A program made the translations under genes and the position numbers. From Candidatus Omnitrophota bacterium (lineage in GTDB: Bacteria > Omnitrophota > Omnitrophia > Omnitrophales > Aquincolibacteriaceae), in contig JAHFHG010000003.1 of assembly GCA_023247035.1 (NCBI GenBank), positions 15,081 to 79,080 of the forward strand: DNA of 64,000 nt, given 5' to 3'. This document shows positions 2,152-14,806 of this stretch, in pieces (position 1 is the first letter of the stretch; each line of letters starts with the position of its first letter). The notes below the pieces were generated by a model. It saw nothing but the letters and a program-made list of their open reading frames with translations, made no database searches and was not told the origin of the DNA.

Positions 2152-4149
2152 ATGTTAATAAGAAACAGTAGAAAGTTAGGTTTGAGTTTGGGAATTATCA
2201 TCGCAGGGATTTTGAGTTTAGGGACCACAGTTTTCGCACAAGAAGAAGGAGCGCAGGAAGGCCAGCAGCAGGAAGCGCCGCCCCAGCCTGAATATCAAGA
2301 ACCCGCTCCGGAACCCACCGCTCCGGCCGAGGTTGCAGCGGCAGCAGCTCCTGCTCCCGCAGAAGCGGCTGCGGTCACAGATGCCTCAGCTCAACAAGAG
2401 TACGAAGCTCAACGCGCGCGCGCCTTGGCCGCTTATGAGCAGCAGGTTCGGGACTTTGAGGCGCAGCTTGGCCAGGCTGAACAGCAGCTTCTCGGCTGGA
2501 AAAACCAGCTTCAAAACGATAAAAATTTTCTTATCAAATTCAATGCCGAACTCCAGCAGCTCGCCGGCGGGCTTAGAGATGCTTATGGGTATTTGGTCCA
2601 GCAAACTCAGCAGCTTATTGAGCGCGCCCGGAAATTAGGAGATAACGATCTGGCTAATGCCTGGGAAAAAGGATTGGGAGATCAGAAGAGCCAATTGGAA
2701 GACTGGGATAAGCGACATCAAGCCTGGACACAGTCCGTTCAGCAATGGACCGGCGAAAGAGAGCAGTGGGGCCTGCAGCTTGATAAGAAGCTCCAGGATA
2801 TTGAGGCGTTGAAAAATGAAGTGCGCAATCTTTTCCAAGAAATTGAAAACGCCCGGACATTGAACGATTGGCAGGGAGTGTTGAACAACTTGAATGGAAA
2901 ACTCGCTGATTTCGGAGGCAGGCTCAGTCAAATTTTCGTCGAGCTTCAAGGTCTCAGCAGCGATTTGGCTCAGGGAAGTAATGAACTGCAAACCGCTTAC
3001 CAGGGTTTCGCTCAGTTGGGCCCGTTCCTTGAAGGTTGGAAGAAGCAATTGGTGGATTGGGATGCCCGGATGAATCAAAGAGAAGCCGGGGGCGGCGCGG
3101 GCGGAAGCAGGGAAAAGGAATCCGTCCAGGCTCCTCCGGGCCGGACCCAGGACAATCCGAGTTGGGAGGATTCTAAAAAACAGCTCCGGGATCTTCAGCA
3201 GATTTTGCAGAATTACAATCGATGGCTCCGTGACTGGAGCGGTGCGCTGAATCAATACCGCGCTGAGCTTCAGAAAGCGGATCAGGAACACAGAGGTCTC
3301 GGCCAGAGTCTCGCCTACGCCAGCCGTGATCTGGTGGCGCAAACAAGGCAGCTTCTTGAGCGTGCAAGGAGAATCGGCGACCGGGATTTCGCTTCGATTT
3401 TGGAAAAAGAACTTTCCTGGCGCGAGCAAGAACTCGCCCATTGGGATCAGAATCAGGAGCAGTGGAGCCGCCAAATCGCGGATGCCGGAAAGCAGCTTGA
3501 TGATTGGGCCAGGGCCCGAGATGAAAAATTTAGGGAAATGGATCAACTGACTCAGGAACTCGACGGGTTGCTCCAACAGATCGAAACAACGAAGGATGTC
3601 GAGGCCTTGGGGAAGGCCTTGCAGGATATTCACGCTAAAATGAATTATTTTACGGACAGAATTCATTCCTTCGCAGCTGAGTTTGAGTCCTTGGGGAACA
3701 ATTTTTCAAGCTGGACCACAACGCTGAACCAGTTTGCCGGCGTATTGAGCAACTGGCAGTATCATTTGGAAAACTGGAAAAAACATTTGGCGGAATGGGA
3801 GAGAGAATTGCAGCAAAGAGAAAGAGGCCAGGTGCCTTCTTCTCAGATCCGTTCGCAGTGGAGGAGCGATCTCGCGCAGTGGCAGTCTCCGCAGTTCAGC
3901 AGTCCGGCGGCAGGCAGGCTGTTTTCTTCGGCATCTTCGCAGCCCATTTCGATGAATCAAGTTAAGAGACAATTTACCTGGCAGAGCCTCATTCAGCAAT
4001 TTCTAGGCGGAAAAAGTCAATCTTCGCTGGGGACGACAGAGGCTGCTTCGACTTTCGGCGGCGCTTCTTCGGCCTCTTCGGCGGCGATGCTTCAGGCCCG
4101 CGTCAGGCAGCTTGAGCAGGAACTTCGCCAGGCGCGAGCCGGCAGTTGA
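2152..4149 (+). CDS. Secreted Trp-rich alpha-helical protein with two tandem copies of the same domain plus a Pro/Ala-rich linker and a Ser-rich C-terminal tail
   Basis: Signal peptide (SRKLGLSLGIIIAGILSLGTTVFAQEE). PAPA-rich low-complexity linker (APPQPEYQEPAPEPTAPAEVAAAAAPAPAEAAA). Domain copy 1 (AYEQQVRDFEAQL...FLEGWKKQLVDWDARMNQREAG) matches gene 1252..2061 residue by residue. A more diverged copy 2 (ILQNYNRWLRDWSG...WQYHLENWKKHLAEWERELQQRE) follows, then a Ser-rich tail. Confidence 0.75.
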   Translation: MLIRNSRKLGLSLGIIIAGILSLGTTVFAQEEGAQEGQQQEAPPQPEYQEPAPEPTAPAEVAAAAAPAPAEAAAVTDASAQQEYEAQRARALAAYEQQVRDFEAQLGQAEQQLLGWKNQLQNDKNFLIKFNAELQQLAGGLRDAYGYLVQQTQQLIERARKLGDNDLANAWEKGLGDQKSQLEDWDKRHQAWTQSVQQWTGEREQWGLQLDKKLQDIEALKNEVRNLFQEIENARTLNDWQGVLNNLNGKLADFGGRLSQIFVELQGLSSDLAQGSNELQTAYQGFAQLGPFLEGWKKQLVDWDARMNQREAGGGAGGSREKESVQAPPGRTQDNPSWEDSKKQLRDLQQILQNYNRWLRDWSGALNQYRAELQKADQEHRGLGQSLAYASRDLVAQTRQLLERARRIGDRDFASILEKELSWREQELAHWDQNQEQWSRQIADAGKQLDDWARARDEKFREMDQLTQELDGLLQQIETTKDVEALGKALQDIHAKMNYFTDRIHSFAAEFESLGNNFSSWTTTLNQFAGVLSNWQYHLENWKKHLAEWERELQQRERGQVPSSQIRSQWRSDLAQWQSPQFSSPAAGRLFSSASSQPISMNQVKRQFTWQSLIQQFLGGKSQSSLGTTEAASTFGGASSASSAAMLQARVRQLEQELRQARAGS

Positions 4150-4154
4150 GAGCT

Positions 4155-4209
4155 AGAAAAAAACCCGGTGAGGTCACATTTCAGTGAAACTTGCCGGGCT
4201 TTTTTTTTA
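4155..4209. terminator. Bidirectional rho-independent terminator between convergent genes
   Basis: A-run (4155-4163), then stem CCCGG...CCGGG around an internal tcac/gtga palindrome, then T9 (4200-4209). It lies between the + gene stop (4149) and the - gene stop (4219), so it reads as hairpin plus U-tract on both strands. Confidence 0.6.
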
Positions 4210-4218
4210 TAACTCAAG

Positions 4219-7200
4219 TTATAATAAATCCAATTGCAGGTTTTTGGGGGAGGCAGCCTTTCCTTTGAAAGAACTCTTCTGTCTCTCCAGAAGTTTTTCT
4301 TCAATGTCCTTTAGAAATGGCGAGGCTTTTTGATCTCTGAAACTTCCTCTCCAAAACCGTTTGTCTGCGTGCGTAAGAAATAAGCGGTCCTTGGCGCGTG
4401 TCATTCCGACGTAAAAAACGCGTCTTTCTTCGGCAAATTCTTCCTGATCTTCAGACGCATCTGCCCATTTCAAGGGGATCAGGCCGTCTTCGCATCCGGC
4501 AATAAATACTACGGGAAACTCGAGGCCTTTGGCGGCGTGCAGCGTCATGAGAGAAACCCGGTCAGAGCGCGCATCCCAAGTGTCCATATCCTGCTCCAGA
4601 CTCATTGCAGACCAAAATAAATTCCAGTTTTCCCCGCACCGCCGGGCGATGGCCTTAAGTTTTTCGAAAATCAATTCTGCTTCGCGTGAAGAAGAAGGGT
4701 CCGGAAGCTTTGATTGGGCGAATGTTAAGCCCTCAAGCAGGCTGGTCTCGTATTCAGTTTTCTGAATTTTGCGCAAGATGCCTTGGACGTTTGAATCGTC
4801 GATGAGCGCCCGGTGGCTGCACCTCTGAAACGGCATTCCCGAACGGGACAAGGCTTCTTCCAGGACGGAAGCCTGCGCCTCGGTCCGGAAAAGAATTGCG
4901 AAATCCGAGAAAGAATAAGGTTTTTCACTTTCTCCTTCCGACCTGCCGGTATCGACTGAAAAAAAAGAAATGCCCCCGATCATTTTCTCGATCCTTTCAA
5001 CGATGAATTCCGCCTCAGCTTTGTCGGAACGCGCCTGATGAATGACCACTTTGCCGGTATCTTCCAGGAAGGCTTCGAGGGCGCGATTTTCGATCAGGCC
5101 GGCGGAGGCCATGACTTGATGGGAAGCCGAAAGGATCGATTGCCCTGAGCGGTAATTTTTGATGAGATGAATTTTTCTAGCGCCGGGAAAATCCTCTTCG
5201 AATCTTAAAAAAAGTTTCACATCGGCTCCGCGAAAACTGTAGATAGCCTGGTCCGGATCGCCGATCGCGCAAAGGTTTGGCTTTTCAGAGACCAGAAGCC
5301 GTATGAGCCGGTACTGCAATTCGTCGATATCCTGATATTCATCAATGGAAATCCAAGGGCGCTTCTTACGATAAGATGCCGCCAGATCAGGATCTTCCCC
5401 AAGCATTTTTACGGGAAGGGCCAGGAGATCGTCATAATCCAGAACGCCATTAATTTCTTTTTCCTTTTCCAGGATTTTCCGGGCGGACTGGATTTCGGGA
5501 TTGGATTCGGATTCTTTAAGCGTTCGTTTCAGGCGGGAAATTTCTTCGAGGATTTTTGAAGCCTTGCGTTCCGCGAGCCCTAAAGAGTTTTTCAGCAAGG
5601 TTTTTCTTTCCTCCTCCCCGGCAATGCGGAATCCACGCGGCAGCCCGGCCGCCTCGCGGTTTTCCTGAAGGAATTGAAATCCAAAGGCGTGAAAAGTAAC
5701 CACGGGAATTTTTGACCAGACGCGGGGGACAAGCGATTTCAACCGCTCCTGCATTTCCTGAGCCGCCCGGCGCGTAAAAGTAATGGTGAGGCACTGCTCG
5801 GGCGGGATCTTATGATTGAGGATCAGGTTGGCGACGCGGTGAGTCAGGACGCGGGTTTTGCCTGAACCCGGGCCGGCGAGGATCAACACAGGCCCGTTTA
5901 GCGTTTCAACGGCTCTTTGTTGATCGGGATCCAGCGTCAGTGAACTTTCCTCTTTACAAATTTTATCGGAGGGAAGAGAGGGAAGCGTGGAAGGGTTTCG
6001 GGCCGGACGAATTTTCTCGTCCTTGCCGGCGGATATTTTTTGAGGACGCGCCGCCGTTTCCTCTCCGGAATCAAATAAAACACGCGCGGTCGTTTTTGCT
6101 TTCAATTCCTTTTCGGTAAAAAGTTTGATCTTTCCGTATTCGCCGTCAAAACCCGCTTCGCGGATCACCTTGCCTTGCCGCATCCGCGAAATAGCCTCTG
6201 TAACGAGAGGCGAGGCGGATTTTCCGATCTCTCCAAGCGGAAGCCCGTTTAAGATTTCAAGCTCCGGCCCTAATTTAGCGAGAAGCTGTTCATGATTCTG
6301 CGCCACAGCTTGGCTCGCCGCGCCGCGGTCCAGAATCTCGGAGATGATTTCCGGCAGCGGAATGAGATTCTTGAAATCACCGGCTTGGCTGGGTTTCTCG
6401 CCTTGAAAACGGTCCGCAAGCTCTTCGACCCGGTACATCACGCCGAGCGTCAGAGGTTTTTTACATTCCGGGCAAATGCCTTGATGAGAACGGCTTTCTT
6501 CGGGCCGGAAGCGCACGCCGCATTTCCGGTGGCCGTCCAGGTGATATTTTCCTTCTTCGGGAAAAAACTCGACGGTCCCCGAAAAGCCTTTTCCGGTTTC
6601 GAGCGCCGAACGGATTGCGAAATAGCTGAGTTCCGTATCGAAAGCGCTCGCCTCGCGGCCCAGCTTTTGTGGGGAATGAGCGTCGGAATTCGAAACGAGC
6701 CGGTAGCGGTCCAGGCTGGAAACCCGCCAATTCATTTCCGGGTCCGAGGACAGCCCCGTTTCAACCGCGAAAATGTGATCCGCCAAATCTCCATAACATT
6801 CGCTGACCGTATCGAAGCCGGATTTCGATCCGAGAACGGAAAACCAGGGTGTCCAGATGTGAGCGGGAACGATGTAGCACTCCGGGCTTGCCTCCAGCAC
6901 GATTTCCAGCAGATGCCTGGAATCGAGCCCTAAAATGGGCCGGCCGTCGGAGCGGATATTTCCGATCTTGGAAAGAGACTTGTTGATCTTCTCCGCGGTT
7001 TCGATTGAAGGCGCGTAAACGAGATGATGGACCTTGCGGGTTTTGTCGCCCTTTTTGTAGATCGTTGAAATTTCCACCGAAAGCATCAAACGTGTCGCGC
7101 CCCGGCAGACCGGCGGAAGTCTCTGAAAGACTTTTTTTTCAAGATCCTCCCGCAAACGGAAGAGGCCCGGCTCGGCGGGGACAAGTTTTTCTTTGATTTC

Positions 7201-7350
7201 ACTCATCCACGCAGGGTGGGTGAAATCGCCCGTTCCGATGACGGTGATTCCTTTTTTGCGTCCCCAGTAAGCCAAATTTTCGAAATCGCAGTCCCGGCTG
7301 GTGGCGCGGGAATATTTGGAATGGATGTGGAGGTCCGCGAAGAAACGCAT
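4219..7350 (-). CDS. Fusion protein: N-terminal PHP-family phosphoesterase with Zn-ribbon (COG1379-like) plus C-terminal UvrD/PcrA/Rep-like SF1 DNA helicase
   Basis: 1043-aa ORF. The N-terminus MRFFADLHIHSKYSRATS...GTGDFTHP is a PHP His-motif. CGVRF...CPEC is a Cys4 ribbon. From about residue 470: DPDQQRAVETLNGPVLILAGPGSGKTRVLTHRVANLI (UvrD Walker A), DEYQD (motif II), and GTDFLSVRFGN... The C-terminal helicase 2B/2A part has GMTRAKDRL. Confidence 0.8.
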   Translation of the reverse strand: MRFFADLHIHSKYSRATSRDCDFENLAYWGRKKGITVIGTGDFTHPAWMSEIKEKLVPAEPGLFRLREDLEKKVFQRLPPVCRGATRLMLSVEISTIYKKGDKTRKVHHLVYAPSIETAEKINKSLSKIGNIRSDGRPILGLDSRHLLEIVLEASPECYIVPAHIWTPWFSVLGSKSGFDTVSECYGDLADHIFAVETGLSSDPEMNWRVSSLDRYRLVSNSDAHSPQKLGREASAFDTELSYFAIRSALETGKGFSGTVEFFPEEGKYHLDGHRKCGVRFRPEESRSHQGICPECKKPLTLGVMYRVEELADRFQGEKPSQAGDFKNLIPLPEIISEILDRGAASQAVAQNHEQLLAKLGPELEILNGLPLGEIGKSASPLVTEAISRMRQGKVIREAGFDGEYGKIKLFTEKELKAKTTARVLFDSGEETAARPQKISAGKDEKIRPARNPSTLPSLPSDKICKEESSLTLDPDQQRAVETLNGPVLILAGPGSGKTRVLTHRVANLILNHKIPPEQCLTITFTRRAAQEMQERLKSLVPRVWSKIPVVTFHAFGFQFLQENREAAGLPRGFRIAGEEERKTLLKNSLGLAERKASKILEEISRLKRTLKESESNPEIQSARKILEKEKEINGVLDYDDLLALPVKMLGEDPDLAASYRKKRPWISIDEYQDIDELQYRLIRLLVSEKPNLCAIGDPDQAIYSFRGADVKLFLRFEEDFPGARKIHLIKNYRSGQSILSASHQVMASAGLIENRALEAFLEDTGKVVIHQARSDKAEAEFIVERIEKMIGGISFFSVDTGRSEGESEKPYSFSDFAILFRTEAQASVLEEALSRSGMPFQRCSHRALIDDSNVQGILRKIQKTEYETSLLEGLTFAQSKLPDPSSSREAELIFEKLKAIARRCGENWNLFWSAMSLEQDMDTWDARSDRVSLMTLHAAKGLEFPVVFIAGCEDGLIPLKWADASEDQEEFAEERRVFYVGMTRAKDRLFLTHADKRFWRGSFRDQKASPFLKDIEEKLLERQKSSFKGKAASPKNLQLDLL

Positions 7351-7475: not shown

Positions 7476-7548
7476 GCTGGCGTAGCTCAGCTGGTAGAGC
7501 GGCTGTTTTGTAAACAGCGGGTCGGGGGTTCAAATCCCTCCGCCAGCT
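7476..7548 (+). tRNA. tRNA-Thr (anticodon UGU)
   Basis: Manual fold: 7-bp acceptor GCTGGCG/CGCCAGC, D-arm GCTCAGCTGGTAGAGC, anticodon stem GCTGT/ACAGC with loop TTTGTAA (UGU), T-arm GGGGGTTCAAATCCCTC. Confidence 0.8.
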
Positions 7549-7563
7549 AAAAATCGTTTTTAC

Positions 7564-7649
7564 GGGGAGTTACCAAAGCGGCCAAATGGACCTGACTGTA
7601 AATCAGGTGGCTTATGCCTTCAGAGGTTCGAATCCTCTACTCCCCACCA
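7564..7649 (+). tRNA. tRNA-Tyr (anticodon GUA), long variable arm, CCA encoded
   Basis: Acceptor GGGGAGT/ACTCCCC, D-loop AGCGGCCAAATGG, anticodon stem CCTGA/TCAGG with loop CTGTAAA (GUA), long variable arm, T-arm GAGGTTCGAATCCTC, and ACCA 3' end. It closely parallels canonical bacterial tRNA-Tyr. Confidence 0.85.
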
Positions 7650-7652
7650 GTT
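7630..7652 (+). repeat. attL: 23-bp direct repeat (3' end of tRNA-Tyr), gaatcctctactccccaccagtt
   Basis: Exact 23-bp match to 12177-12199. The copy at 7630-7652 is the T-arm/acceptor 3' end of tRNA-Tyr. Confidence 0.8.
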
Positions 7653-7731
7653 TTTAGCCGCCCTCTGAAATTCCTTAATTGACGAGGGGTTTCAGAGGGT
7701 ATATATGGATACCAATTTCATCCGGCTGTAA

Positions 7732-7986
7732 TTGATACGCATTGCGCGAAATGCTGGCATTTATGATCTTACCGAAGTTCATGCCCTCCGGCATACCTTC
7801 GCCAGCCAGCTCTTAATGCGCGGCGTTGACCTTCCTTCCGTTCAAAAACTCATGGGGCATAGCAAAATCGAAACCACGCTGATTTATTCTCATCAAACCA
7901 CAGATCATTTGCGGGATGCTGTGGAAAAACTATCAGCAAACAGGCAATGGATTTCATACGATATCACTCAAAGGAGAAATGAATAA
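7732..7986 (+). pseudogene. Tyrosine recombinase (phage integrase) C-terminal fragment, N-terminal about 250 aa missing
   Basis: 84-aa ORF carrying the catalytic-domain motifs HALRHTFASQLL (His-x-x-Arg box) and GHSKIETTLIYSH (catalytic Tyr). Only about 80 bp separate it from the tRNA, so no room for an N-terminal domain. Confidence 0.7.
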
Positions 7987-8123
7987 TGCTGAAAAGCGCG
8001 ACTTGGGTTTTACTGGCGTCAATACTGCTCACTATGGTCTCGTGTGACAAGCCGATTTAAAAAGTTCAAAACAACGATTGCGTATCAGAATATAGATATC
8101 AATATATACAAAACGTAAATGGT

Positions 8124-8315
8124 GTGTTTGATAAAAAACTCGGGATTATTTTTTACTTAAACAATCCCCCCACTGAATTTGTCGCCATTTCTCCTGTGGA
8201 CGAATATCTTTGGGGAAGAAATCCTGAAGATTTAAGAAAGTTTATCAGTTTAGATCGCGCTGAGACGTGGAAAAAAGGTATGGGTATTGAGGTGCCGGAA
8301 AAAGAAACAAAATAA
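8124..8315 (+). CDS. Hypothetical small protein (island cargo)
   Basis: 63-aa ORF in the AT-rich stretch of the island; no recognisable motif. Confidence 0.25.
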   Translation: MFDKKLGIIFYLNNPPTEFVAISPVDEYLWGRNPEDLRKFISLDRAETWKKGMGIEVPEKETK

Positions 8316-9135
8316 TATTCTAAATTTCTCGCCGTCTGATTCTATTAACCACATTTCATTTTTAAACGAAGTTACGCCTTATGAAAACGTGATTGAAAAA
8401 ATGGCTCAAAAAATCTATATGCCAGGCATCAACAAGATTAATTCGTTTATGGATTTGAAAGGTGCCAGAATGTGCTCGCAATTGGGTTTGTCATACGATC
8501 GCACAACATTGATCAATGTGCTTCTCGGATTGATGGAGAAAGATGAAATTCCGGAGGTTTGGAAGAAGAAAATTATTGATTTGATTTTTGTGTTCGACAA
8601 ATATGGACGCAAACCGTCGCATAAAGCGGATTTTTCGAAACTTTTCAAATATGAGTTATCGAGCGTTGATTACTATCACGAAAGGGCTGGAGAAATCTTG
8701 CGCAGAAATAGGTCGAAAGAAAAATCGCTCAAAGATTTGATAGCAAACGCCAAAAGCGGAAAGCCTCATTTGAAAGATAAAGCATTGTACCGCTTAATCG
8801 CGATTGATCCGCGTTGGCTTTACGATGACTGGATTCAAGAGCGAGTCGTTGATGCTTGCAATTCGGGAAACCGTTTCTTTCTACAAAGCTTGGGGGATGC
8901 CCTTTCCAAAGCCGCAAAAGCGTTTATCCCTATTCCGAGAAAAGATTCACGGGCTGATACAGTAATCAAATATTTAAAGAGGAAGGGACGATTAAACATC
9001 CTGCCGCGAAAATTAAAACAATTATCAAAAGAAATTGACACTATAGCAGACCTGAACGCCGATATTTCCCCAAATAATCTAGCCAAAATTCTTAAAAGGT
9101 ATAACCTCCGTTCTAGAATCCATCGAGATTTATAG
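8287..9135 (+). CDS. Hypothetical protein (island cargo, AT-rich; likely true start near 8401, MAQKIYMPG)
   Basis: 282-aa ORF, Lys-rich and markedly more AT-rich than flanking DNA. A strong terminator follows. No recognisable domain. Confidence 0.5.
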   Translation: MRCRKKKQNNILNFSPSDSINHISFLNEVTPYENVIEKMAQKIYMPGINKINSFMDLKGARMCSQLGLSYDRTTLINVLLGLMEKDEIPEVWKKKIIDLIFVFDKYGRKPSHKADFSKLFKYELSSVDYYHERAGEILRRNRSKEKSLKDLIANAKSGKPHLKDKALYRLIAIDPRWLYDDWIQERVVDACNSGNRFFLQSLGDALSKAAKAFIPIPRKDSRADTVIKYLKRKGRLNILPRKLKQLSKEIDTIADLNADISPNNLAKILKRYNLRSRIHRDL

Positions 9136-9149
9136 CCTTCCTTAAAAAA

Positions 9150-9184
9150 GGACACAACTTTCGTATTTTTGTGTCCCTTTTTTG
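9150..9184 (+). terminator. Rho-independent terminator
   Basis: GGACACAA-loop(ctttcgtattt)-TTGTGTCC followed by a T-run, immediately after the stop at 9135. Confidence 0.7.
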
Positions 9185-9210
9185 AACTCGTCCTTGTTTA
9201 AAATGCTCCT

Positions 9211-9528
9211 ATGGCGAAACAAGTGATGAGGCGTGATTCTTCCGATCCAAGTATCTGCATTTCAGAAATCCAACTTTTCCCTATAAAACCCCACAAGAGC
9301 CTTGTCGGGTTTGCCTCCTGCGTTCTCAATGGGCAAGTTTATATCGGCGGTATCGCGCTTCATTGCGACCTTGCAAATCAATCCTTCCGCTGTGTCTATC
9401 CCACGAAGAAATTCAGAGACGGCAAAGAAATGCCTATCTATCACCCGATCACCAGGGAGGCAGGCGAAGCTATCCAAAAGGCCATTGTAACGGAATGGGA
9501 AAATTTGATTAAACGGGAATATTTTTAA
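9211..9528 (+). CDS. SpoVG-like protein
   Basis: 105 aa; matches the SpoVG pattern: ISEIQLFPIKPHKSLVGFASCVLNGQVYIGGIALHCD...YPTKKFRDGKEMPIYHPITREAGEAIQKAIVTEW. Compare SpoVG TDVRLRRV...[20 protein letters not shown]...[23 protein letters not shown]. Confidence 0.55.
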   Translation: MAKQVMRRDSSDPSICISEIQLFPIKPHKSLVGFASCVLNGQVYIGGIALHCDLANQSFRCVYPTKKFRDGKEMPIYHPITREAGEAIQKAIVTEWENLIKREYF

Positions 9529-9551
9529 TTTTATTTAAAAAGTGGTGAAGC

Positions 9552-9878
9552 ATGGGAAGTCAAAAGCGAAAAAAAGGCAAGCACCGGGATTTTGTGGCAT
9601 TTTTAAGACCTCTGCTTGATTCGCCGGAATGGCTTGATCTTTCAAATTCGGCAAAGCTTGCCTATCTTTATTTCAAAAAGGCCTACGTCGGCCACAACAA
9701 CGGCGAAATCAAACTCTATTACAGCCAAATGGGCAAGGTCCTTAAATCATCCGCAACTTTCAGCAAAGCGATCAAGGAGCTCGAAAACAAGAACTGGATC
9801 AAAACTGAAAATCAAGGCGGACTTTTCAAAAGGGCGTCCACTTACAGTCTTACTTTTCTTCATGACAGATTCCGGTAA
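9552..9878 (+). CDS. Hypothetical basic protein (possible winged-helix DNA-binding/replication-associated protein of the island)
   Basis: 108-aa ORF with a Lys-rich N-terminus; no firm motif. Confidence 0.35.
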   Translation: MGSQKRKKGKHRDFVAFLRPLLDSPEWLDLSNSAKLAYLYFKKAYVGHNNGEIKLYYSQMGKVLKSSATFSKAIKELENKNWIKTENQGGLFKRASTYSLTFLHDRFR

Positions 9879-10020
9879 GGGGATGGCAAATATTTAGAAT
9901 ATCTTTGCAATTTGAAGCTGAGTTTGTGCGGAAAACCGGCAGACAGGTTCAAAAAATAAAGCTGGAAGTGCGGTCCAGGGATTGATTGGCTTTAATTTTT
10001 GAAGTGGGCAACTTTAAAAA

Positions 10021-10596
10021 ATGAAGGTGCTTCTGATGGAAGAAGACAACGAATTACAACAAAGGCAAACGCTTTCATTGAATGATTTGAATGAAAAGGA
10101 GCGGCAAGCCGTTGAAATGCGGTATTTGGGCAAGACCTCTCAGGAGATTGGAGAGGCAACCGGCTATAACGATGTTTATGTCCGCAATCTATTTATGCAG
10201 GGCGGCCGGCTTGAAAAGGCGTACCGGGACTTCGCGCATATTCAGCAAGGCTTAGCACAGGAAAAGGTGGCTTCCGCCTTAAATCGAGCAAGAGAAGAAG
10301 CCCTAAGCGCCATTGAGCGTATTATCGCTCTTTCAAAAGATGCCAGCAATGAAGCGGCCATTTTCAAGGCAAATGAATTTTTGCTCAGCGTGGCAGGTGT
10401 TAACGCTCAAGTCACCTTGCGGACCTTTCTTCTCAACAAGTCTTATGAGCACGCCTGCAAACTCGTTGATGACACCTTTAAAGACCTCTACGGCAAGACA
10501 ATCCGCGACAGCGCGGGCAAAATGACACTTGTGGAGCTTGCCAAGCAGTTTAGTGATTTAGGAAGGGGCGAAGCAAATCAAATGGATGGAAATTAG
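10021..10596 (+). CDS. HTH DNA-binding protein (sigma-70 region-4 / LuxR-type helix-turn-helix)
   Basis: 191 aa; the N-terminal ERQAVEMRYLGKTSQEIGEATGYNDVYVRN resembles a sigma-70 r4/ECF-type HTH; the rest is helical. Confidence 0.45.
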   Translation: MKVLLMEEDNELQQRQTLSLNDLNEKERQAVEMRYLGKTSQEIGEATGYNDVYVRNLFMQGGRLEKAYRDFAHIQQGLAQEKVASALNRAREEALSAIERIIALSKDASNEAAIFKANEFLLSVAGVNAQVTLRTFLLNKSYEHACKLVDDTFKDLYGKTIRDSAGKMTLVELAKQFSDLGRGEANQMDGN

Positions 10597-10602
10597 CGCG
10601 AA

Positions 10603-10809
10603 GTGGAAAAGTTTTTGACTCCGAAGCAGTTAAGCGAGTTTTTGCAGGTCGACCTTTCGACGGTCTATCTTTGGACTCATACGGAGTTTATCCCGCATTA
10701 CAAGCTTGGCCGCTCGGTTCGGTTTCTCGAAGGTGATGTTTTGGAATGGCTTCGGAAGCGGAAATTCCAAGGACGGATGACTTTAAAGTATGAAGTAAAC
10801 AGACTTTGA
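10603..10809 (+). CDS. Excisionase / AlpA-family HTH DNA-binding protein
   Basis: 68 aa; LTPKQLSEFLQVDLSTVYLWTHTEFIPHYKLGRSVRFLEGDVLEWL is a typical Xis/AlpA (MerR-like) HTH_17 signature. Confidence 0.65.
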   Translation: MEKFLTPKQLSEFLQVDLSTVYLWTHTEFIPHYKLGRSVRFLEGDVLEWLRKRKFQGRMTLKYEVNRL

Positions 10810-10894
10810 AAAGGCAGCAAGATACGCCCGACTTTTCTGCACCTAATTGCATTTTAGTCTTGACTTTTCGGCAGTTTGCTTCAATATAGCCAAC

Positions 10895-12013
10895 ATGAAA
10901 CGAAGCCTCGAAGCACTTATCAAGAAAGACTTGGATAAGAAGATAGTCCTCCTGAGCGGACCCCGCCAGGTGGGGAAAACCACCCTTGCCAAAGCCCTTT
11001 ATCCAAAGACCGCCGAGTATTTTAATATCGACAGCGAAGAACACCGATTGCTGATCAAGAAAACTGCTTGGCGGCGGGACTGCGAGCTAGTGATTTTTGA
11101 CGAACTCCACAAACTGAAGAAATGGAAGAACTGGATCAAGGGGATTTATGATACCGAAGGAGTACGGCCAAGACTTCTTGTAACAGGTTCGGCGAGGATG
11201 GATGCCTATCGAAAAGGAGGCGATTCTCTGGCAGGTCGTTTTTTTTCATACAGACTGCATCCTTGTTCGGTTGCTGAGGTAAAAGATAAATACCAGGCAG
11301 ATGAGGCGTTGGAAAGAATTTTACGGTTCGGCGGTTTCCCGGAGCCATTTCTTAGGGGCAACGAAGCGGCTGCAAAACGTTGGCGGCGTTCCCATGCGGA
11401 CCGTATTTTGCGTGAAGATTTGCGTGATATTGCTTCAATCCGTGATTTGAAGGGGATTGAAACGCTCGTTGAAATGCTTCGCCGTTCGGTGAGCAGCACA
11501 GTTTCCTACGAATCACTGAGTAGAGATTTGCAGACCTCTCCCCACACGGCTAAAAACTGGATACATATGCTTGAAAACCTCTATATCCTTTTTGTGGTAA
11601 CGCCTTATTCTCACAATATTGCCCGGAGTCTGCTCAAGGCACCCAAGGTCTATTTTTATGACACGGGTTTTGTTAAGGATGATCCCGGAGCAAGATTTGA
11701 AAATGCGGTGGCTTGTGCTCTTCTTAAACGGCTGCACTTTTTAGAGGATACGGAGGGAGAAAAATGTTCTCTTCACTATGTTAGGGACAAGGAAAAAAGA
11801 GAAGTTGATTTTCTCACCATCCGGGAAGGGAAACCCGAATTTTTAATTGAAACCAAAGTCGCCAACCCCGATATAGCTCATCTAAAACATTTTTCGAGAT
11901 CATTAGGTAGAGTAAAACCGATTCTCCTCGCCAGAGAACTCAAACGTGAAATTCAGTTGGAAGGCGTTCCAATCAAAAAGGCGAGTCATTGGCTACAAGG
12001 TCTTGAGGCTTGA
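10895..12013 (+). CDS. AAA+ ATPase (AAA_14 / DUF4143 family)
   Basis: Walker A LLSGPRQVGKTTLAKAL near the N-terminus (start taken at MKRSLEAL), Walker B-like LVIFDELH, and the C-terminal DUF4143-like segment REVDFLTIREGKPEFLIETK. Confidence 0.75.
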   Translation: MKRSLEALIKKDLDKKIVLLSGPRQVGKTTLAKALYPKTAEYFNIDSEEHRLLIKKTAWRRDCELVIFDELHKLKKWKNWIKGIYDTEGVRPRLLVTGSARMDAYRKGGDSLAGRFFSYRLHPCSVAEVKDKYQADEALERILRFGGFPEPFLRGNEAAAKRWRRSHADRILREDLRDIASIRDLKGIETLVEMLRRSVSSTVSYESLSRDLQTSPHTAKNWIHMLENLYILFVVTPYSHNIARSLLKAPKVYFYDTGFVKDDPGARFENAVACALLKRLHFLEDTEGEKCSLHYVRDKEKREVDFLTIREGKPEFLIETKVANPDIAHLKHFSRSLGRVKPILLARELKREIQLEGVPIKKASHWLQGLEA

Positions 12014-12176
12014 AAGCCAAGTTATATTTTTGGGACCAAATTGGGACCAAAGAAATTCAAACTCCATCAAACGCAATCGATGCTATCGGAACAGTAGAAA
12101 GCACGAAACGCTTGATAAATCAGGCGACTTCGCGCATCATATTCAAAATGCGGGAGTTGTGAAAATCCGATTTTAA

Positions 12177-12199
12177 GAATCCTCTACTCCCCACCAGTT
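12177..12199 (+). repeat. attR: second copy of the 23-bp tRNA-Tyr 3'-end direct repeat
   Basis: gaatcctctactccccaccagtt, identical to 7630-7652. Confidence 0.8.
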
Positions 12200-12498
12200 C
12201 TGCGAATCCACTTAATCATCGGGCTGCACTCAAGCAGGCAAAAACCAAGACTCACCCAAACACTCACCAATTAAAATAGAATCGGTTAAACAAATCCGTC
12301 CTTTTTTGTTCATGCGTTAATCGCCCCGCTGCCCATGATTTGAATCGGCGCCGGTGAATTTGGAAAAATATTACGATCCGAAGCAAGAGTCCAAATCGAA
12401 GAGCAAGAGGACTTGAGCGCGAATCCGGATTTTCTTTCCGTCGGATACATTCTCTCCGGAGCCGTTCCATTCGGGGCTTGTGAGCCAGTCGCGGCCTT

Positions 12499-12786
12499 GT
12501 GTCCCTGCTGATTATTCCGGCCGTCACCGGAAGCGCGGCCGCCAAGATTGAGGAATTGAATCACAAAGAAAATAGGCTAAAAATCGCGGCCGTTTTTTTG
12601 GAAAATCATCCCGAGCTATTAAGACAAATCCCGAATATTGAGGATATGATTCGGTTTGACGGCCGGCCTCGAATTCTTTTTGTGGATCAGAAGATGCTCG
12701 CCCTTGCCGCTGATTATTTTGTCCGCGCAGAAGTCCGCTTTAAAAAAGTTAAAATGGAAAACGAAAAAGCGCAATTCAAGGCTTAA
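12499..12786 (+). CDS. Hypothetical protein
   Basis: 95-aa ORF in a low-coding-density stretch after attR; no motif recognised. Confidence 0.25.
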   Translation: MSLLIIPAVTGSAAAKIEELNHKENRLKIAAVFLENHPELLRQIPNIEDMIRFDGRPRILFVDQKMLALAADYFVRAEVRFKKVKMENEKAQFKA

Positions 12787-13057
12787 AATTTTGTGCGCTG
12801 TTTTTGAATTTTTCCTTGTGTTTTTTCTTCTTTTTTATAAAGCTTTCAAAACCTCCAGTCGAAGAATCCTATTATTAAAGCTCAAGAATTTGATAAAAAG
12901 ATTTAAGTATTGACATTTTTATTTTCAGATGCTAACTTTCTTTCCGTTATCCCTCTCCTCTTGAAAAGCAACTTTAGAAAAAAGGGGGGTTGACGATACT
13001 TATTCAAGCACTGGCTCCGCCTCATTCACTGTAGCGTTTGCACTTTGAGAGGATAAA

Positions 13058-13531
13058 ATGAAAACAAAAAACAGTTTTGGGTCATTCTCCTTCCCCCCGG
13101 CTCCTTTTGTCTTGACTCTCATTCTTTTATTAATGGCACCGCTTTTTTCCATGGTTTTTGCGGAGGAGCCAGCCAAAGTTACAGATGCCGTCAATGTTTT
13201 TGCCTATAACCCAGATAATCCCGCGGAGATTCATCCTTTATATGCCGGAGACACCCTTCCATTTGATTCGGTTGTTTATCTCGCTGATTCAAAAAGCAGG
13301 GTCACTTTTACTCAGCAAGGTGAAACCGTAGTGCTGGACCAGCCCGGTTTTTATGATACTTCAGGACAGCCGGTGGAAGTTACCGCCGAAGTCCACGCGC
13401 AGGTCGAAAAACTTGTGAATGCCAAGACTGCCGTAGCGGCAGCGGAAAGCCTCATTGAAGATGCGAAAGCCGGCGATTCCCTAGGCTTATATGTAAATGA
13501 ACCGCAAAACGTTTCAAGTCCATCAGAATAA
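13058..13531 (+). CDS. Secreted hypothetical protein
   Basis: 157 aa; N-terminal signal peptide (FVLTLILLLMAPLFSMVFAEE); acidic mature part. Confidence 0.5.
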   Translation: MKTKNSFGSFSFPPAPFVLTLILLLMAPLFSMVFAEEPAKVTDAVNVFAYNPDNPAEIHPLYAGDTLPFDSVVYLADSKSRVTFTQQGETVVLDQPGFYDTSGQPVEVTAEVHAQVEKLVNAKTAVAAAESLIEDAKAGDSLGLYVNEPQNVSSPSE

Positions 13532-13570
13532 TATAGGCTTGCGCATCCAATTAGAAATAGGGAGATACAG

Positions 13571-14806
13571 ATGAAAAAGCTGCTAAGTTTGGGGATGGTA
13601 CTTTTTTTGTCTTTTTGCGGAACGCTTTCGGCCGGGGAAGAGATCAGCGCTGTAACGCGTGACACCGTGGGAGGTAAAAAAAAGTGGTTTGACGGCGGCG
13701 GCATTGGTTTGGGGCCTGAAAAGCTTTGGCGTATCAGCCCGGGCTTCAAATACTCCACCCTGTATGACTCTAACGTAAACCGTGAGCCGCACACTAAGCA
13801 AGATCATGATATCATCATGCAGTTTATTCCCTCCATTGCCTTAAGCCGGATTGGAAGTAAATTCGGCATCCTTTCAGATTATGAGATGAACTATCAATTA
13901 TTTTTGCGGGATTCGGATCAAACCTCCTTCAATCATCGTTTTAATACCAAAGCCTGGTATGAAAGCGAGCGGCTTAAAGTAAAATTGCATGAAAGTTTCG
14001 GGTGGGTTAAAACTTACGCGACCACGGAACAGACTGAGCGAAGAATAGTCATTTTCAATAAAGTAAATCCTGAGGTCTCCTACCGCGTGACCTCTAAAGT
14101 CAGCGTTTCTTCAATCTATGAAAATTCCATTTTCCACTACAAGGACACCGTGCTGGAAGAAAATAGCTACATCCGAAATGATATCGGTGGGCGCGTTTAC
14201 TACCACGTGACAGACAAGACGGATCTTTTTTTGCAGGGATCCTCGATCTTCACAGATTACTATCAGACCGAGTCGGAGAGTTTTGATTCTCATGGCTACG
14301 GGATTTATGTCGGCGTTATCGGTGAAGTGACGGATAAAACCATTGTGAATCTCAAGACCGGTTTTGAAAGCCGTGATTACGACAACGGCACGATTAATTC
14401 TTTTGACAATTGGGTAGGAGAACTCGGGCTGCGCCACAGCCTTACGGCAAAAAGCGATGTCACCCTAATCGCAAAACGGGGGATCGAGGAATCTATTTAT
14501 CGAAATACGGGTTGGTACGGTTTTAATAAGTTCTCCCTTCATTATGACTACCAAGTCACGCATAACATTGCCGCGCAAATCATCGGCGGGTTTCAACATA
14601 ACGGGTACCCGCGCCAAACGTTCGAAGGCCCGATCCGCCGGAAAAGAAAAGATAAAATTATCACGGCAGAAGCCAAACTGAAATGGGAGCCGATTTCAAA
14701 CGTGATTCTCGCGGGCGGGTATACCTACGGAACACGGATTTGTAATTTTGACGAGTTTGATTACATTGAACATGCCATTGAAGCGTCGACCTCATTGAAG
14801 TTTTAA
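13571..14806 (+). CDS. Putative outer-membrane beta-barrel protein of the polysaccharide export module
   Basis: Signal peptide MKKLLSLGMVLFLSFCGTLSAGEE; alternating amphipathic Y/T/S-rich strands; C-terminal ...STSLKF ends in an aromatic residue; immediately upstream of a Wza-like gene. Confidence 0.5.
   Translation: MKKLLSLGMVLFLSFCGTLSAGEEISAVTRDTVGGKKKWFDGGGIGLGPEKLWRISPGFKYSTLYDSNVNREPHTKQDHDIIMQFIPSIALSRIGSKFGILSDYEMNYQLFLRDSDQTSFNHRFNTKAWYESERLKVKLHESFGWVKTYATTEQTERRIVIFNKVNPEVSYRVTSKVSVSSIYENSIFHYKDTVLEENSYIRNDIGGRVYYHVTDKTDLFLQGSSIFTDYYQTESESFDSHGYGIYVGVIGEVTDKTIVNLKTGFESRDYDNGTINSFDNWVGELGLRHSLTAKSDVTLIAKRGIEESIYRNTGWYGFNKFSLHYDYQVTHNIAAQIIGGFQHNGYPRQTFEGPIRRKRKDKIITAEAKLKWEPISNVILAGGYTYGTRICNFDEFDYIEHAIEASTSLKF

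Follow-up and report, generated by a model that had tools for sequence, protein, structure and literature searches.

What kind of element lies between two identical copies of the end of a tRNA gene, and can it still move? The question is raised by a 4.5-kb island in a stretch of 64,000 nucleotides (nt) from contig JAHFHG010000003.1 of a Candidatus Omnitrophota bacterium. This whole 64-kb stretch is referred to as the window, and all positions count from its first letter. The original prediction, made from the letters alone, had taken the island for a decayed integrative element with AT-rich unknown cargo, inserted in the 3' end of tRNA-Tyr. The best explanation is indeed that this site was entered by a small integrative element from a family specific to Omnitrophota, that its integrase was later deleted and that the element is now fixed in the chromosome, to which we assign a probability of roughly 0.85. 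This explanation is carried by direct observations, namely the repeats, an integrase pseudogene, a gene order collinear with that of intact relatives and a left arm that has been lost. The locus is thus an ordinary decayed islet of the tRNA-integrated, tyrosine-recombinase type, a known kind of element. In the following, L-numbers denote contigs and P-numbers proteins of relatives, and p191 is the 191-amino-acid (aa) helix-turn-helix (HTH) protein of the island.

The integration site

According to ARAGORN, the window contains just two tRNA genes, tRNA-Thr(TGT) (7476-7548, + strand) and tRNA-Tyr(GTA) (7564-7649, + strand), and Rfam agrees (70.8 and 58.8 bits, respectively, for the tRNA model); its scan of the island returned nothing beyond this pair. 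The first gene of the pair is tRNA-Thr, and tRNA-Tyr, the integration target, is intact. The left attachment (att) core, attL (7630-7652, + strand), comprises 23 bp that start in the T-loop, take in the 3' acceptor strand and the CCA and continue into GTT; the 23-mer GAATCCTCTACTCCCCACCAGTT thus consists of the last 20 nt of tRNA-Tyr plus GTT. A second exact copy forms the attR core (12177-12199, + strand). The boundaries of the island as proposed are exact, and the two cores are the only copies in the window: the number of repeats expected by chance is 0, with 0 matches in 100 shuffles even when up to 3 mismatches were allowed. No further copy is found in the window on either strand with up to 6 mismatches, so there are no tandem or older att copies downstream, and the 23-mer is absent from the viral contigs of IMG/VR. 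It is characteristic of a tRNA-integrated element that one copy of its direct repeat completes an intact tRNA gene at the 3' end.

Between the two cores lie an integrase remnant and six intact open reading frames (ORFs). The GC content of the island is 43.2%, with flanks of 50.7% and 48.0%, and it falls to 38.1% over 8000-9200, the AT-rich stretch that had been singled out before. One aspect of the original prediction is not supported: the island was thought to stand where the tRNA pair normally continues into further tRNA and tuf genes, and such a continuation is likewise missing from the Omnitrophota relatives that share the Thr-Tyr pair.

The integrase remnant and the arms

Beside attL lies a tyrosine-integrase pseudogene (7705-7956, + strand) that corresponds, in tblastn alignments, to residues 283-366 of integrases of 367-368 aa. 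Over these 84 C-terminal residues, it is 83% identical to the intact integrase of L082 and 88% identical to that of L100; the remnant ORF and the L100 integrase share 94% identity across 68 residues. The reading frame is interrupted by an in-frame TAA (7729-7731) at a position where L082 has Gln, and the longest remaining ORF (7732-7986, 84 aa) covers only positions 116-170 of the 172 of Pfam Phage_integrase (E 4e-15), in line with the truncation that had been predicted. The HxxR and Tyr region is kept, and neither the Box I Arg nor the catalytic Lys region survives. As in intact elements, the gene stands beside the att site, here as a pseudogene that begins 53 bp from attL. In L082 and L100, the distance from the core to codon 282 is ~950 bp versus 51 bp in the window, which means that ~0.9 kb has been lost, namely integrase codons 1-282 together with the left-arm TTGGGACCAA repeats. 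No second or intact integrase is encoded in the window. A split integrase that is rejoined in the circular form was considered and rejected: when both ends of the element were translated, the right end proved to encode an ATPase and no integrase N-terminus.

The right arm is better preserved. A repeat search revealed two perfect tandem TTGGGACCAAA repeats (12030-12051, + strand), which are putative right-arm integrase sites, and TGGGACCAA occurs nowhere in the window beyond this pair. In both L082 and L100, a GGGACC(A/G) repeat pair with 11-bp spacing lies ~20-35 bp upstream of the integrase start, and the right arm of L082 holds a further, degenerate pair. Arm repeats are thus present in both arms of L082, in the left arm of L100 and in the right arm only of the window copy. 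In addition, the 163 non-coding nt before attR (12031-12193) are 73% identical to positions 11325-11487 of L082. The integrases of the intact relatives have ~60 N-terminal residues before the SAM-like core-binding domain.

Because the integrase and the left arm are missing, the window copy should not be able to excise by itself, which is consistent with the immobilization that had been considered probable. It retains both cores, identical in 23 of 23 positions, and the right-arm repeat pair; in other words, it is flanked by att sites and has no functional recombinase, as is typical of cis-mobilisable elements (CIMEs).

Intact relatives in Omnitrophota

A single-sequence search yielded 33 homologues of p191 and a profile search 53 (5.8 billion clusters). 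All are annotated as hypothetical proteins, and the few with a named source belong without exception to Omnitrophota/Omnitrophica; no relatives were found in IMG/VR, among INPHARED phages or among PLSDB plasmids. The p191 relatives occupy elements of ~2-12.5 kb bounded by repeats of tRNA 3' ends (Tyr, Ser, Asp). One counterpart of the window island is an element of 5.8 kb (L082/L083), in which tRNA-Thr and tRNA-Tyr are followed by an intact 368-aa integrase and a 17-bp repeat, GAATCCATTACTCCCCA, is found at 5702 and 11471; this repeat starts at the same tRNA position as the 23-bp core of the window. L100 has the same tRNA-Thr/tRNA-Tyr pair followed by an intact 367-aa integrase, and in both cases the integrase lies within ~115 bp of the tRNA pair. 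The comparison with these full-length integrases at the same site strengthens the reading of the 23-bp repeats as att sites, the truncation of the integrase and the gene list. The element of L082/L083/L084, recovered from several samples, combines a complete integrase with att repeats at both ends and a backbone in the order of the window island: the integrase C-terminus is followed by a 108-aa winged HTH (wHTH) protein (43% identity), p191 (68%) and an HTH_17 protein (76%). The two elements differ in two variable slots. Between integrase and backbone, L082 encodes a PDZ protein and a 242-aa ORF, and the window a 63-aa ORF and a protein of 244 or 282 aa; after the excisionase-like gene (xis) and before the right arm, the window encodes a DUF4143 ATPase where an unrelated ORF of 176 aa is found in L082.

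Elements with intact machinery at the same type of site thus occur in tRNA-Tyr (L082/L083, L100), tRNA-Ser (L085-L087) and tRNA-Asp (L093). The element of L085-L087 lies in tRNA-Ser(TGA), has a 16-bp repeat and a length of 9.2 kb and carries an M78/HTH_3 pair and a D5_N primase, and that of L093/L104 lies in tRNA-Asp(GTC) (44-bp repeat, 12.5 kb) and encodes a DUF3987 primase, with the integrase at the far end. In L088/L089 and L105, large serine recombinases replace the tyrosine integrase. In a 1.9-kb remnant in tRNA-Ser(GGA) with a 14-bp repeat (L101, Ga0066636_10022533, 453-2487), all that is left is xis, a 231-aa ORF and a p191 gene that is itself truncated; p191 elements have thus decayed in place more than once. 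As far as the literature search shows, the family is hitherto undescribed, and it is apparently restricted to Omnitrophota; no description of it was found, and the one preprint on Omnitrophota mobile elements concerns different, much larger ones.

Some relatives show a further arrangement. In L100 (Ga0114951_10010483, 3616-7062), two family elements flank one tRNA-Thr/tRNA-Tyr pair, one of them consisting of p191 followed by a 429-aa integrase, with an overlap of 21 nt between the 3' end of the integrase gene and the 5' end of tRNA-Thr. The same layout of an integrase followed by the 5' end of a tRNA gene is seen in L098 (2493-3647, tRNA-Arg) and L102 (737-1947, tRNA-Thr CGT). Such a layout would imply that these elements insert at the 5' side of tRNA genes, an unusual mode; an upstream repeat was not found in L100, L098 or L102, all of which are short contigs.

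Insertion, decay and the missing empty site

The history of the island can be pictured as follows: The element's own tyrosine integrase probably catalysed site-specific recombination into the 3' end of tRNA-Tyr(GTA), and insertion duplicated the 23-bp core to yield attL, inside the tRNA gene, and attR. Judging from the relatives, the ancestral element began with the attL core and a left arm carrying paired GGGACCAA sites, after which came int, a first variable slot for cargo and a small DNA-binding/replication module; the 19x-aa HTH protein and the Xis-like HTH_17 protein stood next, and a further slot for cargo separated them from the right arm, again with paired GGGACCAA sites, and the attR core. 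In the window copy, the sites of the left arm and the first 282 integrase codons then disappeared in a deletion of ~0.9 kb. A stop interrupts the codons that remain, and the copy, no longer able to excise alone, has become fixed in the chromosome.

Several points weigh against this history. No empty site (attB) was found: in 185,579 species genomes, the flanking helicase has matches of at most 66% identity, and the best matches in this one-genome-per-species GTDB set, which include Omnitrophota metagenome-assembled genomes, do not share the tRNA neighbourhood. Because there is no close relative of the host in the collections searched, the empty site cannot be reconstructed. The predicted attB junction joins CTCCCCACCAGTT directly to CTGCGAATCCACTTAATC, and the predicted attP junction leads from AAATCCGATTTTAA through the core GAATCCTCTACTCCCCACCAGTT to TTTAGCCGCCCTCTG; the exact attB pattern is absent from the JGI metagenomes. 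Exact-protein look-ups of the window proteins retrieved nothing but short contigs (L001, L090, L122), all from the organism itself. An independent assembly of it, Logan SRR14366783, provides L001, equivalent to window 7620-9374, and L122, equivalent to 9551-14596 and 99.9% identical; L122 crosses attR unbroken, with no direct sign of population polymorphism or excision and no unoccupied variant visible in this assembly. Furthermore, the 51 bp beside attL do not resemble the left arms of L082 and L100, neither by blastn nor by visual comparison, for which reason the end-points of the deletion are approximate; the repeat search places a hairpin in this stub (7661-7699, + strand, 15-nt arms, 87% complementary). 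Finally, the role of the GGGACCAA and TTGGGACCAAA repeats as arm-type integrase-binding sites is one that we only infer, and this, too, counts on the negative side.

The start of L001 at 7620, exactly 30 nt before the end of tRNA-Tyr, might be mistaken for an empty-site polymorphism. This was rejected, as the break is 3 nt off the expected position and L122 crosses attR intact; it is probably due to other community members that share the tRNA 3' end.

Alternative explanations

Could the boundaries be illusory, the repeat being a generic or chance one and the genes between its copies ordinary chromosome? Nothing speaks for this beyond the missing empty-site comparison, and it is effectively refuted by the shuffles, by the L082 repeat that starts at the same tRNA base and by collinear homology that extends from the integrase to the right arm. 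A larger ancestor deserves slightly more thought: the island might be what remains of a full-size prophage after large deletions, given the terminase gene to which one member of the family is linked (L099) and the clear deletion in the window integrase. It is very improbable in view of the L082/L083/L084 element, which has the same backbone order within 5.8 kb, complete with intact integrase and both att repeats, and in view of the island ORFs, among which Pfam and PHROG searches detect no fragment of a capsid, tail or lysis gene.

A different fate of the same remnant is conceivable as well, which is compatible with loss of the integrase and subsequent fixation and does not exclude it. The remnant could be a CIME-like passenger: an intact relative would integrate at the perfect tRNA-Tyr attL, and the resulting tandem pair would be excised together, by analogy using the attL arm of the newcomer and the attR core and right arm of the resident element. 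Accretion of this kind is known from work on streptococcal CIMEs and integrative and conjugative elements (ICEs). The identity of the cores in 23 of 23 positions would suit a passenger, as would the preservation of the right-arm repeat pair, of the 163-nt arm homology and of every gene other than the integrase; moreover, tRNA-Tyr is targeted by several family members, and L100 has two elements around one tRNA pair. We nevertheless regard it as rather unlikely, since the window contains neither an intact relative or integrase nor a tandem array, and attR is not polymorphic in the one independent assembly. Integration followed by deletion of the integrase and fixation is the preferred account of the locus.

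Backbone and cargo genes

The genes between the remnant and attR were all found on the + strand, and profile searches recovered every function that had been assigned to them, i.e. a SpoVG-like protein, an HTH protein with Sigma70_r4 similarity, an AlpA/Xis protein and a DUF4143 AAA ATPase. The description of the interior as unknown cargo is appropriate in part. The ATPase is cargo, and the 63-aa ORF and the 244/282-aa protein look like cargo too; the SpoVG-like protein, the 108-aa wHTH protein, p191 and the HTH_17 protein look like backbone, because they recur in related elements.

The SpoVG-like protein (9211-9528, 105 aa) matches Pfam SpoVG (E 1.5e-7, 31.9 bits, cut-off 29.6) and stays far below the cut-off of the NCBIfam equivalog PRK13259 (25.5 versus 108 bits); by these scores, it would be a member of the SpoVG fold family, but not an orthologue of the septation regulator. 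Homologues with 34-38% identity are encoded upstream of replication genes in L096 and L097. The basic 108-aa wHTH protein (9552-9878), which had been noted before as a small basic protein, matches PHROG 186 (E 4e-7) as well as PHROGs 428, 270 and 8102; it resembles the DNA-binding N-terminus of DnaD-like loaders and of initiators of phage replication, and its counterpart at the same position in L082 (43% identity) is a 113-aa ORF. Regarding iteron-like origin repeats, nothing convincing was seen besides a 15-nt AT-rich inverted repeat at 9948-10003. The hallmark protein p191 (10021-10596) matches Pfam Sigma70_r4 (E 1.5e-5). Most of its homologues end in a conserved CxxC (e.g. C-PKCD; alignment A1, columns 230-245), which is absent from the window protein and from its 88%-identical relative P0002. 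The following HTH_17/excisionase-family protein of AlpA/Xis type (10603-10809, 68 aa; Pfam HTH_17, E 2e-13) reaches 39.9 bits with TIGR01764 'excise' (cut-off 28.8), is 71-76% identical to the gene that follows the p191 homologue in L082 and L085/L087 and presumably acts as excisionase.

The 388-aa ATPase (10847-12013; Pfam AAA_14, E 1e-23, and DUF4143, E 1e-27) is cargo specific to the window and fills the second slot, the one after xis. It matches four PADLOC models of PDC-S01 with E-values from 3.6e-26 to 2.8e-55; the best, PDLC04790 (E 2.8e-55), covers residues 16-355 and counts as a full-length match. The ATPase may be defensive, and its gene is a candidate phage-defence gene.

The first slot opens with the 63-aa ORF (8124-8315), which has no Pfam, PHROG, PADLOC or NCBIfam match. 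It is followed by an orphan all-helical protein, the 282-aa ORF at 8287-9135; its true start is likely at 8401, giving 244 aa, the length of the database gene call P0034. The remote-homology search suggested for this protein was carried out and turned up little: exhaustive HMMER searches of 1.84 billion representatives gave 20 relatives, only 6 of them below 1e-10, and none of 19 family members contains a Pfam domain. A confident AlphaFold2 (AF2) model built from 19 sequences (pLDDT 82, pTM 0.76) is all-helical, with 12 helices, and matches no fold in the PDB at E<=0.001. In another small element, the homologue P0043 adjoins HTH_17, an AAA_25 helicase and an integrase; the family is thus tied to mobile elements, with an opaque function. 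Kinship with the ORFs of 261-285 aa at the same position in other p191 elements was considered and dropped, as hidden Markov models indicate none. As predicted, a terminator-like hairpin follows the 282-aa ORF (9144-9182; arms AAAAAAGGACACAA at 9144-9157 and TTGTGTCCCTTTTT at 9169-9182, then TTTTT); its 14-nt arms are 93% complementary, and it divides the AT-rich genes from the backbone module.

A phage satellite?

Given the gene content of the relatives, the family might consist of phage satellites resembling PICMIs (phage-inducible chromosomal minimalist islands) or PICIs (phage-inducible chromosomal islands), with p191 as a factor, similar to a small terminase (TerS) or acting on late genes, that diverts a helper phage; the window copy would then be a decayed member. 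Relatives pair the integrase and HTH_17 with a primase/helicase (D5_N/DUF5906, DUF3987 or a DnaB-like protein with a primase zinc-binding domain) and have no structural genes, and integrase, HTH_17 and primase are the set of genes that defines PICMIs (PMC10803314). In L099, the p191 homologue follows primase/helicase genes and lies 266 nt upstream of a large terminase (TerL) gene, with a 56-aa ORF between them; the terminase matches Terminase_3 (E 1e-5) and PHROG 2 (E 3e-14). The AF2 model of p191 (pLDDT 75) combines an N-terminal HTH with a long helix of 43 residues, which would be compatible with the architecture of TerS. Its best fold match in BFVD (E 1e-4) is unnamed, and proteins named small terminase appear at E ~0.009 with TM-scores <0.4.

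Other observations point away from this. Sigma70_r4 is the only profile match of p191, which has no TerS match in Pfam or the PHROGs. Foldseek finds no significant similarity to PDB folds: the prophage protein 2AO9 ranks first (E 0.2), ahead of sigma-r4/LuxR HTH domains, and no TM-score reaches 0.4. A profile search of PDB sequences returned HTH proteins and a few unrelated weak matches, but no terminase. A terminase is present in only one of ~15 contexts, that of L099, the other contexts of p191 being different. The primase is absent from both the window element and L082, IMG/VR, INPHARED and PLSDB contain no relative of the family, and no helper phage is known. The possibility that p191 is the TerS of phages with a TerL related to that of L099 was rejected, because the genes upstream of TerL in these phages are unrelated. 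The satellite interpretation is hence an unproven hypothesis rather than a finding, and a doubtful one at present; p191 may be a regulator or a small-terminase-like protein, as far as models and profiles can tell.

L099 itself (OBEQ011648314.1, 805-5417) encodes, in this order, HTH_17, a primase zinc-binding domain, a 544-aa ORF, the p191 homologue, the 56-aa ORF and the large terminase, and the contig ends at 5.5 kb. It is possibly a helper phage or a capsid-forming relative of the small elements. In the most far-reaching form of the hypothesis, which is tentative and on balance unlikely, Omnitrophota would have its first recognised lineage of phage satellites, with the window copy as a decayed member; these would be minimalist tRNA-targeting elements of 2-12 kb in which p191 would serve as TerS-like or hijacking factor against L099-type helpers, the PDC-S01 ATPase and the 244-aa protein would be defence-candidate cargo and the attR arm would still permit mobilization.

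Comparison with known systems

The closest parallels are tRNA islets with degenerate tyrosine integrases of the lambda/P4 type with arm sites, which share the repeat of the tRNA 3' end, the integrase beside the tRNA gene, the HTH_17 Xis-like protein, the lowered GC content and decay through deletion of the integrase. The window element differs from them in its very small size (4.5 kb), its uncultured Omnitrophota-like host and its backbone genes p191, 108-aa wHTH and SpoVG-like, which have no characterised counterparts.

PICMIs of Vibrionaceae are ~6 kb long and comprise int, AlpA/HTH_17, a primase, a few unknown genes and sometimes a defence gene; they lack capsid-remodelling genes and integrate next to fis, not in tRNA genes (PMC10803314). 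Measured by the families that define PICMIs (integrase PF00589, PF00239 or PF07508; AlpA PF05930 or PF12728; primase DUF3987, PF13148, or DUF5906, PF19263), an integrase is present as a pseudogene in the window and intact in relatives, and the HTH_17 protein represents AlpA (PF12728, E 2e-13). A primase is missing from the window, where DUF5906 yields just a sub-threshold match to the P-loop of the DUF4143 ATPase; PICMI-type primases (DUF3987 or DUF5906) occur in the relatives L085, L100 and L093/L104. Unlike the fis-adjacent PICMIs, the window element is located in tRNA-Tyr; PICMIs, in turn, lack the p191 hallmark, and neither a helper phage nor induction is known for the p191 family. Elements of the PICI type, including the Staphylococcus aureus pathogenicity islands, resemble the family in their layout of integrase, replication, packaging-factor and accessory genes, in a possible distal TerS-like gene and in accessory/defence cargo. 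They differ in being ~10-15 kb long, with recognisable pri-rep and terS/rpp/ppi or capsid-morphogenesis genes, none of which was detected here by profile search.

CIMEs, as known from Streptococcus thermophilus, arise from ICEs or integrative and mobilisable elements after loss of the recombination and transfer modules. Like them, the window element has intact att cores and no working recombinase, and by analogy it might be moved by accretion with an incoming relative; it differs in showing no evident conjugative ancestry. PDC-S01, finally, is the PADLOC combination of AAA_14 and DUF4143, to which the 388-aa ATPase corresponds in composition and in its place in a cargo slot of a mobile element. 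PDC-S01 is only a candidate system, and we know of no defence phenotype for this protein.

Neighbouring genes

The helicase that flanks the tRNA pair (4219-7350, - strand) is a 1043-aa PHP-UvrD protein with an N-terminal domain of the TIGR00375 family and a UvrD/PcrA-type helicase; relatives with 47-66% identity are scattered in Omnitrophota, Binatia, Sorangium, actinomycetes and Melainabacteria. Right of attR, a further 850 bp (12200-13050) are AT-rich as well (42.9% GC, and 36-37% over 12600-13200) and hold just one 95-aa ORF with no family match; they may represent an older remnant, or they may regulate the polysaccharide locus downstream. This export and biosynthesis locus begins with a long run of genes, all on the + strand, from 13571 to ~60000, which includes a BBP2_2 porin, Poly_export/SLBB (Wza-like), Wzz plus P-loop kinase-like, Wzy_C with TPR, and a GFO_IDH_MocA-hexapeptide fusion.

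Significance

As a locus, the island is a textbook decayed islet and of modest interest. Its value, and the somewhat higher interest of the family, lies in the entry it provides to a compact group of very small integrative elements whose att sites are clear and which have putative arm sites, two slots for cargo and the conserved HTH protein p191. To our knowledge, very few mobile elements have been described in Omnitrophota. The PDC-S01 ATPase and the 244-aa orphan, which has no PDB fold match, are two candidates for anti-phage screening. If the family were satellite-like, minimalist satellites would extend beyond Vibrionaceae, and candidate helper phages would be indicated.

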